A DNA stretch of 40,040 nucleotides, taken from the IMG/VR virus record IMGVR_UViG_2547132278_000009; one strand, given 5' to 3'. A program made the position numbers and the translations under genes. This DNA comes from a virus (lineage: Duplodnaviria; Heunggongvirae; Uroviricota; Caudoviricetes). This document shows, piece by piece, positions 34,088-40,040 of this stretch. Under the pieces are notes generated by a model that saw only the letters and a program-made list of their open reading frames with translations, made no database searches and was not told the DNA's origin. The stretch's first letter is position 1, and the number at the start of each line of letters is the position of its first letter.

Positions 34088-36121
34088 TTACTTAACCTGA
34101 TGGCCTGGTTTAGCACCGGCATCCGGGCTTAACAGGAAGATATCTTTCCCGCCGGGGCCAGCAGCCATCACCATGCCTTCAGAGATACCGAAGCGCATTT
34201 TACGCGGAGCCAGGTTAGCCACCATAATGGTGTGACGACCAATCAGTGCCTGTGGATCTGGATAAGCGGAACGGATGCCTGAGAAGACATTACGCTTTTC
34301 ACCACCGAGATCCAGCGTCAGGCGCAGCAGTTTGTCAGAACCTTCGACAAACTCCGCGTTTTCAATCAGCGCCACACGCAGGTCAACTTTGGCGAAGTCG
34401 TCAAAGGTGATGGTTTCCTGAATCGGGTCGTCAGCCAGTGGGCCAGTTACCGGTGCAGCTGTGGCTTTCACTTCTTCTTTGGATGCTTCCACCAGTGCTT
34501 CCACCTGTTTCATATCGATACGGTTATACAGTGCCTTGAACGGATTCACTTTATGGCCCAGCAGCGGTTGCTGGATACCATCCCAGGTCAGTTCTGTATT
34601 CAGGAATGCTTCTGCACGTTCAGTCAGTTTCGGCAGTACCGGTTTCAGGTACGTCATCAGCACGCGGAACAGGTTAATGCCCATAGAGCAAATCGCCTGC
34701 AGATCGGCATCGCGTCCTTCCTGCTTCGCCACCACCCACGGAGCCTGTTCATCGACATAGCGGTTAGCCAGATCAGCCAGCGCCATGATTTCACGAATCG
34801 CTTTACCAAATTCGCGGCTTTCCCATGCTTCACCAATCACTTCAGCGGCATCAGTAAAGGTTTTGTACAGTTGCGGGTCAGCCAGTTCGCCTGCCAGCAC
34901 ACCGTCAAAACGCTTATTGATAAAGCCCGCGTTACGGGACGCCAGATTCACCACTTTGTTCACGATATCGGCATTCACGCGCTGAACGAAATCCTCCAGG
35001 TTGAGATCGATATCATCAATGCGCGAAGAGAGTTTCGCAGTGTAGTAGTAACGCAGGCTGTCAGCGTCAAAATGATTCAGCCAGGTGCTGGCTTTAATAA
35101 AGGTGCCGCGAGACTTGGACATCTTCGCACCGTTCACCGTCACATAGCCATGAACAAACAGGTTGGTCGGCTTGCGGAAGTTGCTGCCTTCCAGCATGGC
35201 AGGCCAGAACAGGCTGTGGAAGTAAACGATATCTTTACCGATGAAGTGGTACAGCTCGGCGGTGGAGTCTTTCTTCCAGTATTCGTCGAAGCTGGTAGTG
35301 TCGCCGCGTTTGTCGCACAGATTCTTGAAGGAACCCATGTAGCCAATCGGTGCGTCCAGCCAGACGTAGAAATATTTGCCCGGTGCGTTCGGAATTTCAA
35401 AACCGAAGTACGGCGCATCGCGGGAGATATCCCACTGTTGCAGGCCAGATTCAAACCACTCCTGCATTTTGTTTGCCACCTGCTCCTGCAACGCACCGCT
35501 GCGGGTCCATGCCTGCAACATTTCGCTGAAAGAGGGCAGATCAAAGAAGAAGTGTTCGGAATCACGCATTACCGGCGTAGCACCAGAAACTACCGATTTC
35601 GGCTCGATCAGTTCAGTCGGGCTGTAAGTCGCGCCGCAGACTTCACAGTTATCGCCGTATTGATCTGGCGCTTTACATTTAGGACAGGTGCCTTTTACAA
35701 AACGGTCCGGCAGGAACATGCCTTTTTCCGGGTCGTACAACTGAGAGATAGTGCGGTTTTTAATAAAACCGTTCTCTTTCAGGCGAGTATAGATAAGCTC
35801 AGACAACTGACGGTTCTCTTCGCTGTGCGTCGAGTGATAGTTGTCATAGCTGATGTTAAAGCCTGCGAAATCAGTCTGATGTTCCTGACTCATTTCGCCA
35901 ATCATCTGCTCCGGTGTGATACCAAGCTGCTGTGCTTTCAGCATGATCGGCGTACCGTGGGCATCGTCGGCACAGATGAAATTAACCTCGTGGCCGCGCA
36001 TTCGCTGGTAACGAACCCAGACATCAGCCTGGATGTGCTCCAGCATATGGCCGAGGTGGATTGAGCCGTTAGCGTACGGCAGCGCGCACGTCACCAGAAT
36101 TTTCTTCGCGACTTGGGTCAT
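34088..36121 (-). CDS. metG: Methionyl-tRNA synthetase
   Basis: Near-identity to E. coli MetG as I recall it (start [36 protein letters not shown] motif present); ORF-track N-terminal extension discarded. Confidence 0.97.
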
Positions 36122-36278
36122 AGTAGGCATTACTTCTTTGTAGTGAAAAGGGGCTTGATAGTAACAAAATGGCCTTATGTCTGCCATGTGATAACAGCAT
36201 TTCTCATAAATGATTAAATGTCGTAGCTGGAGTACACTACAAGGCGACAATTGCGCAAATTAAAATAAAGGAGACGGG

Positions 36279-37379
36279 ATGAGCGAGTCCAAATCGCCGG
36301 ATGCCCTGAGAGCAATGGTAGCCGGTACGCTGGCTAATTTTCAGCACCCAACCCTGAAACACAACCTGACTACGCTTAAAGCGTTACACCATGTTGCGTT
36401 GATGGATGACACACTGCATGTCGAACTAATCATGCCTTTCGTGTGGAATAAGCCTTTTGAAGACCTGAAAGAGCAATGTAGTGGTGATCTGCTCCGTATC
36501 ACTGGCGCAAAGGCTATTGACTGGAAGCTGTCGTACAACATTGCCACGCTTAAGCGTGTCAAAAACCAACCAGGCATTAATGGCGTTAAGAACATTATCG
36601 CCGTCAGCTCAGGCAAGGGCGGCGTGGGTAAATCCTCCACGGCGGTAAACCTGGCACTGGCGTTGGCTGCTGAAGGTGCGAAAGTTGGTATTTTGGATGC
36701 CGATATCTATGGTCCATCAATTCCAACCATGCTGGGCGCGGAAAACCAACGTCCAACCTCACCTGACGGTACTCACATGGCACCTATCATGTCTCATGGC
36801 CTGGCAACCAACTCTATTGGTTATCTGGTCACCGACGACAATGCAATGGTGTGGCGTGGACCGATGGCCAGCAAGGCGCTGATGCAGATGTTGCAGGAAA
36901 CTCTATGGCCTGATCTGGACTATCTTGTTCTCGATATGCCGCCGGGCACTGGTGATATTCAGTTGACGCTGGCGCAGAACATTCCTGTAACTGGTGCTGT
37001 TGTGGTAACTACGCCGCAAGACATCGCGCTGATCGATGCGAAGAAAGGCATTGTGATGTTCGAAAAAGTCGAAGTGCCGGTACTGGGTATCGTCGAAAAC
37101 ATGAGTGTGCATATTTGCAGTAACTGCGGTCATCACGAGCCAATTTTCGGCACCGGTGGCGCAGAGAAACTGGCCGAGAAATACAACACGCAGTTGTTAG
37201 GCCAAATGCCACTTCATATCTCACTTCGTGAAGATCTGGATAACGGAACACCAACCGTTATTAGTCGTCCAGATAGCGAATTTACGGCTATTTATCGTGA
37301 CCTCGCAGATCGCGTTGCTGCCCAAATGTATTGGCAAGGTGAAGTAATACCTGGCGAAATCGCATTCCGCGCAGTGTGA
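36279..37379 (+). CDS. mrp: Mrp/ApbC iron-sulfur cluster carrier ATPase
   Basis: Near-identity to E. coli Mrp as I recall it (P-loop SGKGGVGKSS, CSNCGHHE motif); divergent from metG. Confidence 0.95.
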   Translation: MSESKSPDALRAMVAGTLANFQHPTLKHNLTTLKALHHVALMDDTLHVELIMPFVWNKPFEDLKEQCSGDLLRITGAKAIDWKLSYNIATLKRVKNQPGINGVKNIIAVSSGKGGVGKSSTAVNLALALAAEGAKVGILDADIYGPSIPTMLGAENQRPTSPDGTHMAPIMSHGLATNSIGYLVTDDNAMVWRGPMASKALMQMLQETLWPDLDYLVLDMPPGTGDIQLTLAQNIPVTGAVVVTTPQDIALIDAKKGIVMFEKVEVPVLGIVENMSVHICSNCGHHEPIFGTGGAEKLAEKYNTQLLGQMPLHISLREDLDNGTPTVISRPDSEFTAIYRDLADRVAAQMYWQGEVIPGEIAFRAV

Positions 37380-37416: not shown

Positions 37417-37806
37417 CTACATCACGGGACAATCATCAAACTCGCCACTTCTTGCGTCGTTGATAATGTGAGTGATCACACCAAACACGGCATTGCTGCC
37501 CGTGCATCCATCGTCATCCTTTGGCAATGCTTCCTTCTTACCGGTTCTTAAATCCTCCAGATGCTGACGTGGATACTTCCGGTATCTTTTTACGCGATAT
37601 TCCCCATCCAGAGCGCATACAAGCAGAGAACCATCAACCGGGGTAAGTGAGGAATCGACCACCAGCAATGCACCCTGTAATATTCCCTCACGATGATGAC
37701 TATCAGCTGCCCTCATGAAGTAGGTCGCTGAAGGATGTCTAATTATCTGCTGATCAAGAGAAATACGGCTCTCAGCATAATCCGCCGCAGGAGAAGGGAA
37801 GCCCAT
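37417..37806 (-). CDS. UmuD-like S24 peptidase-family protein, without an adjacent umuC
   Basis: 129 aa; GFPSPAADY..., HPSATYF and GVITH match E. coli UmuD; Ser and Lys of the S24 dyad appear present (DSH..., VKR). Confidence 0.8.
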   Translation of the reverse strand: MGFPSPAADYAESRISLDQQIIRHPSATYFMRAADSHHREGILQGALLVVDSSLTPVDGSLLVCALDGEYRVKRYRKYPRQHLEDLRTGKKEALPKDDDGCTGSNAVFGVITHIINDARSGEFDDCPVM

Positions 37807-37822
37807 AATACTCGCCTCTTAA

Positions 37823-37842
37823 TACTGTATACACATACAGTA
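37823..37842. promoter_or_regulatory. LexA (SOS) box
   Basis: TACTGTATACACATACAGTA, i.e. CTGT-N8-ACAG, 17 bp upstream of the UmuD-like start codon. Confidence 0.85.
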
Positions 37843-38140
37843 TATATTGAAGCTATATATTTTTGAACTCTATCTCTTAAAAAAGATGTTAATAAGATGC
37901 TAACTATTGAAAGGCATAAATATATACAATTCAAACAAACGTTATTTTTAACAAATTTTTTCTTCCCATTGACTTTTTCGAACGCCTTGTCCGGTCTAAA
38001 GTGCGCAGAAGTCACTTTTTCCTTCCTGAGTTATCCACAGGCTTATGCACTTGCATGAAAAATCTATTCACACTATCTTAATTCGCAAGACACTGATGTT
38101 GCAGTATTGAGGGTATGTTGGGTTAAAAATAGACATTAAA

Positions 38141-38170
38141 AAGCCCAGTTGACTAGGCTGGGCTTTTTAA
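38141..38170. terminator. Bidirectional rho-independent terminator
   Basis: AAAAAGCCCAG-TTGACTAG-GCTGGGCTTTTT. Confidence 0.65.
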
Positions 38171-38468
38171 AAGGAAACAGAGTTTGCGGCTCTGTTCCTG
38201 AGCCATAAGTATCTGGCGACTGAATTAAGATTAACCGAATGTACTGGATTCATCAAGAAACGTTGAGTGGTCATACTAGGTAATAATGACCATTTACTAA
38301 ACATCGTTGTTCTCAAAGAAGATTTAAGTCCAGGTTTTTGGTGACTCTAAAACCTTACCTTAACTCGAAATCGTGCCGTAAGTATCTGGCGACTACAGAT
38401 ATTGCAACTGCAAAGGCAAGCCCAAAGGTATTTGCAGCTAGGCGCGATAAAACTAAGTGAGGCCTGTT

Positions 38469-38552
38469 ATGGTTAACTTACTGTTCAAAATCGTGCCGCC
38501 GATGTTCGCGATTATCAAAGCGATCATTGAGTACGTAAACCAGCGTCCATAA
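38469..38552 (+). CDS. Possible small hydrophobic peptide (27 aa)
   Basis: MVNLLFKIVPPMFAIIKAIIEYVNQRP with GTGAGG RBS upstream and a stem-loop (GGCCCCAT-N7-ATGGGGCC) downstream. Confidence 0.3.
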   Translation: MVNLLFKIVPPMFAIIKAIIEYVNQRP

Positions 38553-38607
38553 CGCTAGTTGCTACAGGCCCCATCAAGAGCATGGGGCCTCTTTATCGTA
38601 CTATTGC

Positions 38608-39234
38608 TTATTTTTTACGGACTGAGTTGTTCACTGCTCTGGCAATTTTCTCCCGCAATTGCTGCGCTCCGTGGTACTGAACCGCAATATCCCGCAACTC
38701 GTTCACCAGTTCTCTAATCTGGTGATCTTTAAGCTCATTATTTGGGTGATGGGTAACAACTCTGGTTAATTCACCCTTGTCTTTTGCTCTTACGTATGCA
38801 GCTCTTGTGCATTCGACCCATGTATTACCGCCTACATTAACTTCGTAGATTAGGCTGGACTTATCTGTCAATTCGGAACAAATACGGGCCGTGGTCTGGC
38901 AACTAGAGCATTCGCAGTTATCGCGGAAACCGTGATCTACCGGTCGAGAAAGAGGTTTAACTTTTTCATCCAACTTCATCACAGCATCGTGATAAGCGTT
39001 CCAGCCGTCATCTTTACCAAGTTGATAAATCTCTGAAGGCTCCATGTAGTCTATATCGCAACCTTCTTCATCCGATCTATCTGGTCGCTTCCCTGGTAAT
39101 CGCTCATAAAAACGATTTCTGTCTCGACGTTCGGCTCTCAGTGCTAACGCAAGAAGTTGCTCAAGCGAGGTATTTGCACCAGCAATAATTTCATTGAGAA
39201 TATCTTCTGTGAGATCTTTCGCTACCGTGCTCAT
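38608..39234 (-). CDS. Hypothetical protein (208 aa)
   Basis: ORF overlapping the upstream 127-aa ORF by 4 nt; CxC...C.SC cysteine cluster; no family recognised. Confidence 0.5.
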   Translation of the reverse strand: MSTVAKDLTEDILNEIIAGANTSLEQLLALALRAERRDRNRFYERLPGKRPDRSDEEGCDIDYMEPSEIYQLGKDDGWNAYHDAVMKLDEKVKPLSRPVDHGFRDNCECSSCQTTARICSELTDKSSLIYEVNVGGNTWVECTRAAYVRAKDKGELTRVVTHHPNNELKDHQIRELVNELRDIAVQYHGAQQLREKIARAVNNSVRKK

Positions 39235-39894: not shown

Positions 39895-40040
39895 ATGGAT
39901 AAACCTACAGACTGGCGCTCCGGAACCCGCCGGATATTTTCTAATGAATTTAAACTTCATATGGTTGAACTGGCTTCGAAACCAAATGCCAATGTTGCAC
40001 AACTGGCCCGGGAACATGGCGTTGATAACAACCTGATTTT
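39895..40040 (+). CDS. IS3-family transposase OrfA-like HTH protein, N-terminal part (partial, continues off-window)
   Basis: MDKPTDWRSGTRRIFSNEFKLHMVELASKPNANVAQLAREHGVDNNLIF fits the IS3-family OrfA pattern (R-x-FS-x-EFK ... VAQLARE.GV..N.L). Confidence 0.65.
   Translation, partial: MDKPTDWRSGTRRIFSNEFKLHMVELASKPNANVAQLAREHGVDNNLI

Follow-up and report, generated by a model that had tools for sequence, protein, structure and literature searches.

A candidate antisense-RNA and small-peptide module with type I toxin–antitoxin architecture in a phage-plasmid of the SSU5/Cyrano type

Within the window, which is the whole 40,040-nucleotide stretch of viral DNA analysed here (IMG/VR record IMGVR_UViG_2547132278_000009), a 460-bp unannotated gap was found by sequence analysis to hold two divergent small genes. 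Comparison with relatives indicates that the two genes constitute a conserved and so far unannotated pair of antisense RNA and small peptide with type I toxin–antitoxin architecture. The anatomy of this module, comprising two genes, their pairing sites, RNA folds and an open reading frame (ORF) under selection, is assigned with high confidence, and we estimate at roughly 75% the probability that the module works as a type I toxin–antitoxin pair in plasmids and phage-plasmids of the Enterobacteriaceae. In layout it is of the dinQ/agrB and zorO/orzO type, and as judged from sequence it represents a new family that is found in no curated library tested. A preliminary description of the region had likened it to loci of small membrane peptides or type I pairs with antisense RNAs. 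The comparative evidence speaks for that suggestion in the form of an RNA gene on the minus strand whose promoter and terminator are conserved, co-varying complementarity between the 5' end of this RNA and the 5' untranslated region (UTR) of the peptide mRNA, and purifying selection on the ORF.

Over the 821 bases surrounding the module, identity is 100% to E. coli plasmids of ~108–110 kb and 96.8% to phage Cyrano (pLF82) and phage CMS-2020a. These elements belong to the SSU5-like phage-plasmids (PMC9928086), and the window derives from an E. coli phage-plasmid of this ~108-kb SSU5/Cyrano-like kind. The module lies between a gene for a HumD/UmuD'-like S24 peptidase on its left (37417–37806, minus strand) and a gene for a hypothetical protein of 208 amino acids on its right (38608–39234, minus strand). 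A single LexA box, CTGTATACACATACAG, is situated at 37825–37840 in the promoter of the peptidase gene, and the 254 bp upstream (37805–38058) share ~79% identity with the stretch preceding humD in phages P1 and P7. Homologues of metG (full-length, methionyl-tRNA synthetase) and apbC/mrp are carried by the phage-plasmid itself at 34088–37379 of the window, and both genes are also annotated in plasmid p1_20409 and phage Cyrano. At the far end of the window (39895–40040) lies the start of an IS3-family transposase OrfA (HTH_Tnp_1), cut off by the window end; as the otherwise identical p1_20409 has no transposase there, the window copy carries an IS insertion.

The module was found in 118 of 5426 complete E. 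coli genomes (~2%), mostly on plasmids of ~108 kb. Distant blastn matches at 68–83% DNA identity place it in unrelated backbones as well, including a 91-kb Enterobacter hormaechei plasmid, a 261-kb Klebsiella IncFIB plasmid, Citrobacter plasmids of 84–99 kb, and MOBF conjugative plasmids of Kosakonia cowanii and Enterobacter sp. R4-368. Further relatives were retrieved with a pattern built on an invariant hairpin of the 5' UTR, which returned contigs of Citrobacter sp. NCU1 and Kluyvera georgiana, together with 23 loci from metagenomes, a few of them matched by chance, and 30 viral-collection loci. In total, ~29 distinct modules were assembled from several enterobacterial genera, spread over plasmids, phage-plasmids and metagenomes. 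Their mean column identity in the alignment is 66%, so they are not recent copies of one sequence, and preservation of the whole arrangement across them indicates that its features exceed chance. Some plasmid copies adjoin replication genes and other addiction genes. The gap carries no annotated feature in any database record examined, the listed E. coli records included. The preliminary description had proposed a search of small-protein and sRNA databases; this search returned no known sRNA for the region, and neither the RNA nor the peptide is represented in Rfam, Pfam, NCBIfam or PHROGs.

The predicted antisense sRNA gene occupies 38137–38221 on the minus strand and would give an RNA of ~85 nt, in which a single-stranded 5' pairing region is followed by a middle hairpin and then by an intrinsic terminator; its ends were placed from the promoter and the T-run. 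The promoter is of the sigma-70 type (38228–38256, minus strand) and is composed of a -35 element TTGATG (38256–38251), a 17-nt spacer and a -10 element TAATCT (38233–38228). In all 27 of the 27 distinct relatives scanned with a promoter matrix it falls in the same column of the alignment, with sequences in the range TTGATG/TTGAAG, 17 nt, TAATCT/TAAGCT, and the same arrangement can be read by eye in two Kosakonia-type modules (L006 and L007). Transcription from this promoter is predicted to start ~7 nt past the -10 element, at ~38221, which is exactly the outer edge of the first copy of the direct repeat considered below. A perfect 10-nt inverted repeat, ATCTTAATTC / GAATTAAGAT, flanks the sRNA gene on both sides (38075–38084 and 38222–38231); it is absent from the close relative L009 and is thus probably due to chance.

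Two terminator-like hairpins had been reported at the borders of the region, and both are present, at 38136–38170 with perfect arms of 13 nt and at 38566–38590 with arms of 9 nt. The hairpin with a 10-bp stem said to lie between them also exists, as GGAAACAGAG / CTCTGTTCC at 38173–38198, with ~9–10 bp and one bulged A. The left terminator and this hairpin belong, however, to the minus-strand RNA and not to the plus strand. In the relatives the left terminator has a good T-run solely on the minus strand, where a 13-bp stem precedes the U-run (38136–38170), and compensatory changes include GC to AU exchange, in either direction, at two stem positions. The stem of the middle hairpin (38173–38198, minus strand) is similarly maintained by compensatory changes. 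The predicted 85-nt RNA folds with z = -5.0 into a free 5' end, the hairpin and the terminator. In a consensus structure for 21 distinct sequences, 96.6% of cells are paired and 28 cells are double-changed, versus 10.4 in shuffles. A covariance model built from the relatives gives 72–73 bits to Kosakonia and Enterobacter copies on which it was not trained; it gives the window 98 bits by construction, as the window sequence is in the model. One metagenome contig (L027, OLHG01029296.1, positions 400–660) has the peptide and the 5' UTR target without a recognisable sRNA gene upstream, and could represent an orphaned toxin or a copy altered by rearrangement.

The 16-mer TAAGTATCTGGCGACT occurs exactly twice, as the preliminary description had it, with each copy one base further along than the starts it gave (38205 and 38378). 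The copies are at 38206–38221 and 38379–38394, ~173 bp apart, and 0.01 such matches would be expected in the window by chance. With one difference allowed, the match is 20 nt long, and 20–24 nt pair if G·U is allowed. The first copy is the DNA for the 5' end of the sRNA (38197–38221, minus strand), and the second would be its target in the 5' UTR of the peptide mRNA (38370–38394, plus strand), 75–99 nt upstream of the ATG. Complementarity takes the form of a direct repeat on the DNA because the RNA is transcribed divergently from a place other than its target. Loci of this kind often occur as partial tandem duplications, as the preliminary description remarked, but the repeat is not to be read as the relic of one; its copies correspond to the 5' end of the antisense RNA and its mRNA target.

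Eight variants of the repeat are found among the ~29 modules, each with matching changes in both copies, and the sequences that flank the two copies are unrelated. These variants are TAAGTATCTGGCGACT, AATGTATCTGGCGACT, GTTGTTAACCGGCGAC, ..GGCAGC, ..ATCCGG.., GTAAAACACTGGCGAC, ..GGCTACA and GTATGTGTCTGCCAGC. In the intermolecular helix of 24 pairs, 94.9% of cells are paired over 17 distinct pairs, and double changes are seen at 15 of the 24 positions, a level reached by none of 500 shuffles. Of the differences between the copies, 35 cells are compatible with a G·U pair when the RNA is read as the reverse complement of copy 1 and the mRNA as copy 2, and just 3 cells are so in the reverse arrangement. 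Within the 19-nt core, all five differing positions are of the G·U-compatible kind. Gene conversion could in principle keep both copies identical; identity at the level of DNA would not yield the G·U asymmetry, which disfavours both gene conversion and a protein-binding site, and gene conversion also would not account for the co-varying arm of the 5' UTR helix P3 described below. Self-matches aside, nowhere in the 40-kb window is the sRNA 5' end predicted to pair better than at the target site, with -38.5 versus -30 kcal/mol for the next. Duplex prediction with the full-length RNAs gave no informative result.

On the plus strand, the motif AAGTCCAGG followed by a 5' hairpin, HP1 (38332–38355), spans 38326–38355 and is the likely 5' end of the mRNA, primary or processed; AAGUCCAGG is likely to serve as the mark of such an end. 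Three pairs of HP1 carry double changes, and its G·U pairs fit a plus-strand RNA only. Promoter-matrix scans of the relatives found no conserved canonical promoter on the plus strand, and a weak -10-like hexamer, (G/T)AA(A/T)TT, adjoins HP1 when the alignment is read by eye. A possible promoter TTCATC-17-CATACT (38249–38277), back-to-back with that of the sRNA, was set aside as specific to the window and not conserved.

Downstream of HP1 the 5' UTR is predicted to adopt a conserved fold (38371–38447, plus strand) made up of the helices P2 (38371–38377 with 38441–38447), P3 (38382–38387 with 38397–38402, with GGCGAC in its loop) and P4 (38408–38414 with 38431–38437). In this fold 96.4% of cells are paired, and 6 pairs are double-changed versus 1.9 in shuffles. 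P4 (38408–38437) is unchanged in 16 aligned sequences and shows a compensatory change from C-G to U-A in the Kosakonia-type copies. The 3' arm of P3 co-varies with both copies of the repeat in three relatives (L004, L034 and L006). The Shine-Dalgarno sequence GAGG (38459–38462, plus strand) is predicted to pair with codons 3–5, the probability of its being unpaired amounting to 0.02–0.33 in fold predictions for four members.

The preliminary description had also pointed to a repeated word, AAATCGTGCCG, which is indeed present in two copies (38368–38378 and 38488–38498, with 0.04 expected). The second copy lies within the ORF on the plus strand, where it encodes K-I-V-P, and is predicted to pair with GGCGCGAT at 38441–38448; it is lineage-specific and is not kept at the nucleotide level in relatives. 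A dinQ-like swap of P2 between the UTR and ORF copies of AUCGUGCC was considered and rejected, because blocking the target in silico left the accessibility of the Shine-Dalgarno sequence and AUG unchanged in four members and because the ORF copy is not conserved. No structural switch is evident from folding with the target blocked.

The 27-codon ORF with a plausible ribosome-binding site was also confirmed: it encodes MVNLLFKIVPPMFAIIKAIIEYVNQRP, a putative toxin (38469–38552, plus strand), with its ATG at 38469, its stop codon ending at 38552 and the GAGG six bases before the ATG. Over 14 distinct 27-codon versions, pN is 0.11 and pS is 0.39, which corresponds to purifying selection. Variable sites are distributed as 16/6/23 over the three codon positions, and the signal is missing in the other two frames. 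An intrinsic terminator follows the ORF (38566–38598, plus strand), and in every relative a terminator comes after the last small ORF. The ORF is not a leader peptide, since the terminator directly follows it and the next gene is on the opposite strand. The peptide has one hydrophobic stretch (best 17-residue hydropathy window ~2.0) and a basic C-terminus. Its GRAVY value is 0.86, compared with 1.4–1.8 for DinQ or ZorO, and it has Pro-Pro in mid-helix as well as charged residues.

In many relatives two tandem paralogues, type A (MQMLLLFLKLAHPVAVIIMTLLGYWKDR) and then type B (MVSLLLKILPPLVAIITTIIDYINKR), are found on one predicted mRNA, and their alignment indicates that the two types are homologous. 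Tandem A–B ORFs stand behind a single sRNA target site in L003 (1641–1831), L004 (1656–1846), L005 (1652–1846), L010 (5033–5221) and L006 (1361–1545). The window has type B only and two Citrobacter plasmids have type A only; type A was either lost from the window or never there. No credible match for five of the peptides was found in Pfam, NCBIfam or PHROGs. The peptides are essentially absent from a collection of 15 billion proteins, in which an exact look-up gave 'hypothetical' entries only and a concatenated A+B query matched one unnamed protein of 58 amino acids. A literature search by peptide strings found no mention of them, and no curated database record was found.

The same anatomy would also suit a peptide that is an sRNA-controlled small membrane protein, regulatory or accessory to the plasmid or phage-plasmid and acting, for instance, in membrane-protein modulation, exclusion or lysis timing and not in addiction. 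The toxicity of the peptide is only presumed, its hydrophobicity is lower than that of classical type I toxins, it carries Pro-Pro and charged residues, and it has no similarity to any toxin family. These properties have to be set against a self-contained cassette that moves between unrelated plasmid backbones and adjoins replication and addiction genes, against a layout that copies those of dinQ/agrB and zor/orz, and against the tandem toxin paralogues and many pairing-specificity variants, which are typical of antisense-controlled killers. On balance we regard a function other than that of a toxin as rather unlikely.

It might further be supposed that the repeat copies are DNA binding sites, operator or iteron-like, for a protein of the element, and that the hairpins are the terminators of neighbouring genes. 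A pair of direct repeats spaced by ~173 bp, lying between genes and close to the humD promoter on a replicon rich in DNA-binding proteins, would fit such a proposal. It does not explain why the module looks the same in backbones that have no neighbouring genes in common, why G·U-compatible differences are biased to one orientation (35 versus 3), why the 3' arm of P3 co-varies as a third element in the manner of an RNA stem, or why copy 1 begins exactly at the start predicted from the promoter in 27 of 27 relatives; we judge it very improbable. Still less credible, and given the lowest weight here, is the notion of a decaying remnant of a duplication or former gene, in which ORF and hairpins have no present function. 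The lack of annotation in every record examined and the shortness of the ORF would agree with it, but they are outweighed by an ORF under purifying selection, by compensatory changes in the intermolecular duplex as well as in three RNA structures, and by conservation across genera at 68–83% DNA identity with a mean column identity of 66%.

If the module is a type I toxin–antitoxin pair, its operation can be envisaged as follows. Conservation, co-variation of the pairing sites, RNA structures and coding constraint are, like the anatomy, shown by the comparison, whereas transcription, toxicity, the mechanism of repression and the role in addiction are inferred. The plus strand would be transcribed into an mRNA of ~270 nt or somewhat longer with a structured 5' UTR, encoding the hydrophobic, C-terminally basic peptide of 27 amino acids, which is presumed to be membrane-active and toxic. 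The sigma-70-type promoter on the minus strand would drive synthesis of the ~85-nt RNA, the first ~20–24 nt of which would pair 75–99 nt upstream of the start codon. Pairing probably starts where the sRNA, with its free 5' end, meets the GGCGAC loop of P3, and would then zip through ~20–24 bp into helix P2, leaving the peptide unexpressed. By analogy with tisB/istR-1, zorO/orzO and dinQ/agrB, repression may proceed through a block of the standby site, where ribosomes load upstream, through cleavage by RNase III, or through both. Upon loss of the element the sRNA would no longer be resupplied, so that the peptide would be made and would damage the membrane; in this way the cassette could stabilise its replicon.

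Several properties that define type I systems are recognisable in the module. In T1TAdb, the corresponding class has the antisense RNA 5' of the mRNA, no more than 300 nt away and without overlap, and the two interact over 15 nt or more (PMC8594479); here the sRNA is predicted to start at ~38221 and HP1 begins at 38332, leaving a gap of ~110 nt, and the interaction is 16–24 nt. More generally, there is a hydrophobic ORF of fewer than 60 amino acids with a Shine-Dalgarno sequence and under selection, a computationally predicted gene for a separate antisense RNA, furnished with a promoter and terminator of its own, and predicted base-pairing between antisense RNA and mRNA that is perfect over 16 nt in the window.

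A scan of 4227 Rfam families was carried out at the sRNA locus of eight members (the window, L002–L006, L008 and L009). OrzO-P and/or AgrB were the best or among the best matches in the window, L002, L003 and L006, and no match was obtained for L004, L005, L008 and L009. Scores for AgrB (RF02891) were 27.6 bits in the window and 20.5 in L006, below the gathering cut-off of 40, which a dqlB-linked RNA on a plasmid passed as positive control with 47.8 bits. Those for OrzO-P (RF02083) were 34.2 bits in L003, 26.4 in L002 and 24.0 in L006, below the gathering cut-off of 60. Matches to Thr_leader, RNAI, DapZ and istR were discarded as look-alikes of terminators or hairpins that fell below the gathering score.

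The closest parallels in organisation are with dinQ/agrB and the dinQ-like dqlA/dqlB loci (dql), known from the E. coli chromosome and from IncX3 and further enterobacterial plasmids, where likewise a divergent, non-overlapping sRNA lies 5' of a toxin mRNA whose 5' UTR is long and structured, the target is ~75 nt upstream of an ORF of 27–31 codons, and an sRNA of ~85 nt is composed of a 5' pairing region, a hairpin and a terminator. In dinQ/agrB, dqlB and zorO/orzO the complementarity also takes the form of a direct repeat once the loci are laid out in the same orientation. More locally, the Kosakonia copy has a terminator, CCGACTGATGAGGTCGG, almost the same as the one of the dqlB-linked AgrB, CCGACTGGTGAGGTCGG, the motif AAGTCCNGG...GGTG is common to the module 5' UTR and those of dinQ, dqlB and zorO, and the AAGTCCAGG motif of the module resembles CAAGTCCTGG in the same three 5' UTRs. 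Counted from predicted -10 boxes, AAGTCCNGG...GGTG falls where the processed +44 dinQ and Δ28 zorO mRNAs start, the latter form being named in PMC11264685. DqlB begins with MINLL and the module peptide with MVNLL, and only M(I/V)NLL is shared: no DinQ/DqlB match exists in NCBIfam or Pfam even at E <= 10, and the family HMM gives DqlB 2.3 bits. Genes of the dinQ/dql kind are described as having an mRNA 5' UTR strikingly similar to that of dinQ (Kristiansen et al. 2016, PMC5066626). A profile of the module 5' UTR (nhmmer) had no match in the dqlB or zorO loci at E <= 10, and its two matches in the dinQ locus (E 0.2–0.5) both lie outside dinQ and its 5' UTR. The pairing region of the module is ~20–24 nt, compared with ~31–34 nt for dinQ/agrB and dql. 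Unlike dinQ and tisB, which are SOS-controlled with a LexA box at the promoter, the putative toxin gene has no LexA box; the only CTG-N10-CAG site within 37700–38700 is the one at 37825–37840, ~500 bp away. DinQ-type antisense-controlled toxins are themselves very common plasmid cargo, as E. coli plasmids carry AgrB-like sequence at 763 places and 1684 plasmids in PLSDB, most of them conjugative, match the sequence of the dinQ/agrB locus, with most of the listed rows annotated dqlB or dinQ.

The architecture of zorO/orzO (zorP/orzP) is also the same, OrzO-P being the top Rfam match for L003 and L002, and the terminator loop CUCAYCAG is common to the module sRNA and OrzO. The motif CAAGTCCTGG falls, on a count from predicted -10 boxes, where the active, processed 5' end would be expected. 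The similarity to OrzO is mostly in the terminator, however, and ZorO has no similarity to the module peptide. Moreover, zor/orz is a chromosomal locus in nearly all cases, with 4 of 7068 places on plasmids, whereas the module is plasmid-borne. In tisB/istR-1 and shoB/ohsC a trans-acting divergent sRNA pairs, as proposed for the module, far upstream of a closed ribosome-binding site, and no sequence relation of either to the module was detected. Control of tisB by IstR-1 combines blocking of the standby site with RNase III, and in zorO/orzO and dinQ/agrB the antisense RNA blocks upstream ribosome loading, triggers RNase III cleavage, or does both. By this analogy, tisB/istR-1 is the likely functional model for the module. 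The hok/sok system resembles the module in being plasmid-borne and in specifying a small membrane peptide, with the antisense RNA made from a good promoter and the mRNA from a weak one, and plasmid maintenance is the likely role in common. It differs in that its RNAs overlap in cis and that it has a leader ORF (mok) and 3' processing, whereas the RNAs of the module are non-overlapping and its putative toxin is half the size. Taken from sequence comparison, the resemblances to AgrB, OrzO, dqlB and zor are a lead for distant common ancestry and do not amount to membership.

A broader proposal, which we offer tentatively and would hold as possible without favouring it, is that the module represents a plasmid and phage-plasmid branch of a wider dinQ/dql/zor superfamily. 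The eight sRNA–target 'specificity alleles' would then be orthogonal recognition classes, functioning as an addiction and exclusion marker under diversifying selection, and some members would silence two tandem toxins with one sRNA. If this were true, orthogonal classes would prevent a plasmid's antisense RNA from neutralising the killer encoded by its competitor. The weak likeness to AgrB, OrzO, dqlB and zor bears in any event on the relation of dinQ/agrB to zor/orz, a question of kinship recently raised (PMC11264685). The natural set of matched sRNA and target variants amounts to a ready collection of compensatory mutants for the study of specificity in antisense recognition. The module also fills a gap in annotation on plasmids of E. 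coli, Citrobacter, Enterobacter, Klebsiella and Kosakonia and on a Kluyvera contig. SSU5/Cyrano-like phage-plasmids have so far been credited with protein toxin–antitoxin pairs only, such as KacT, RelE and HicAB (PMC9928086), and to these the module would add an antisense-controlled maintenance system.
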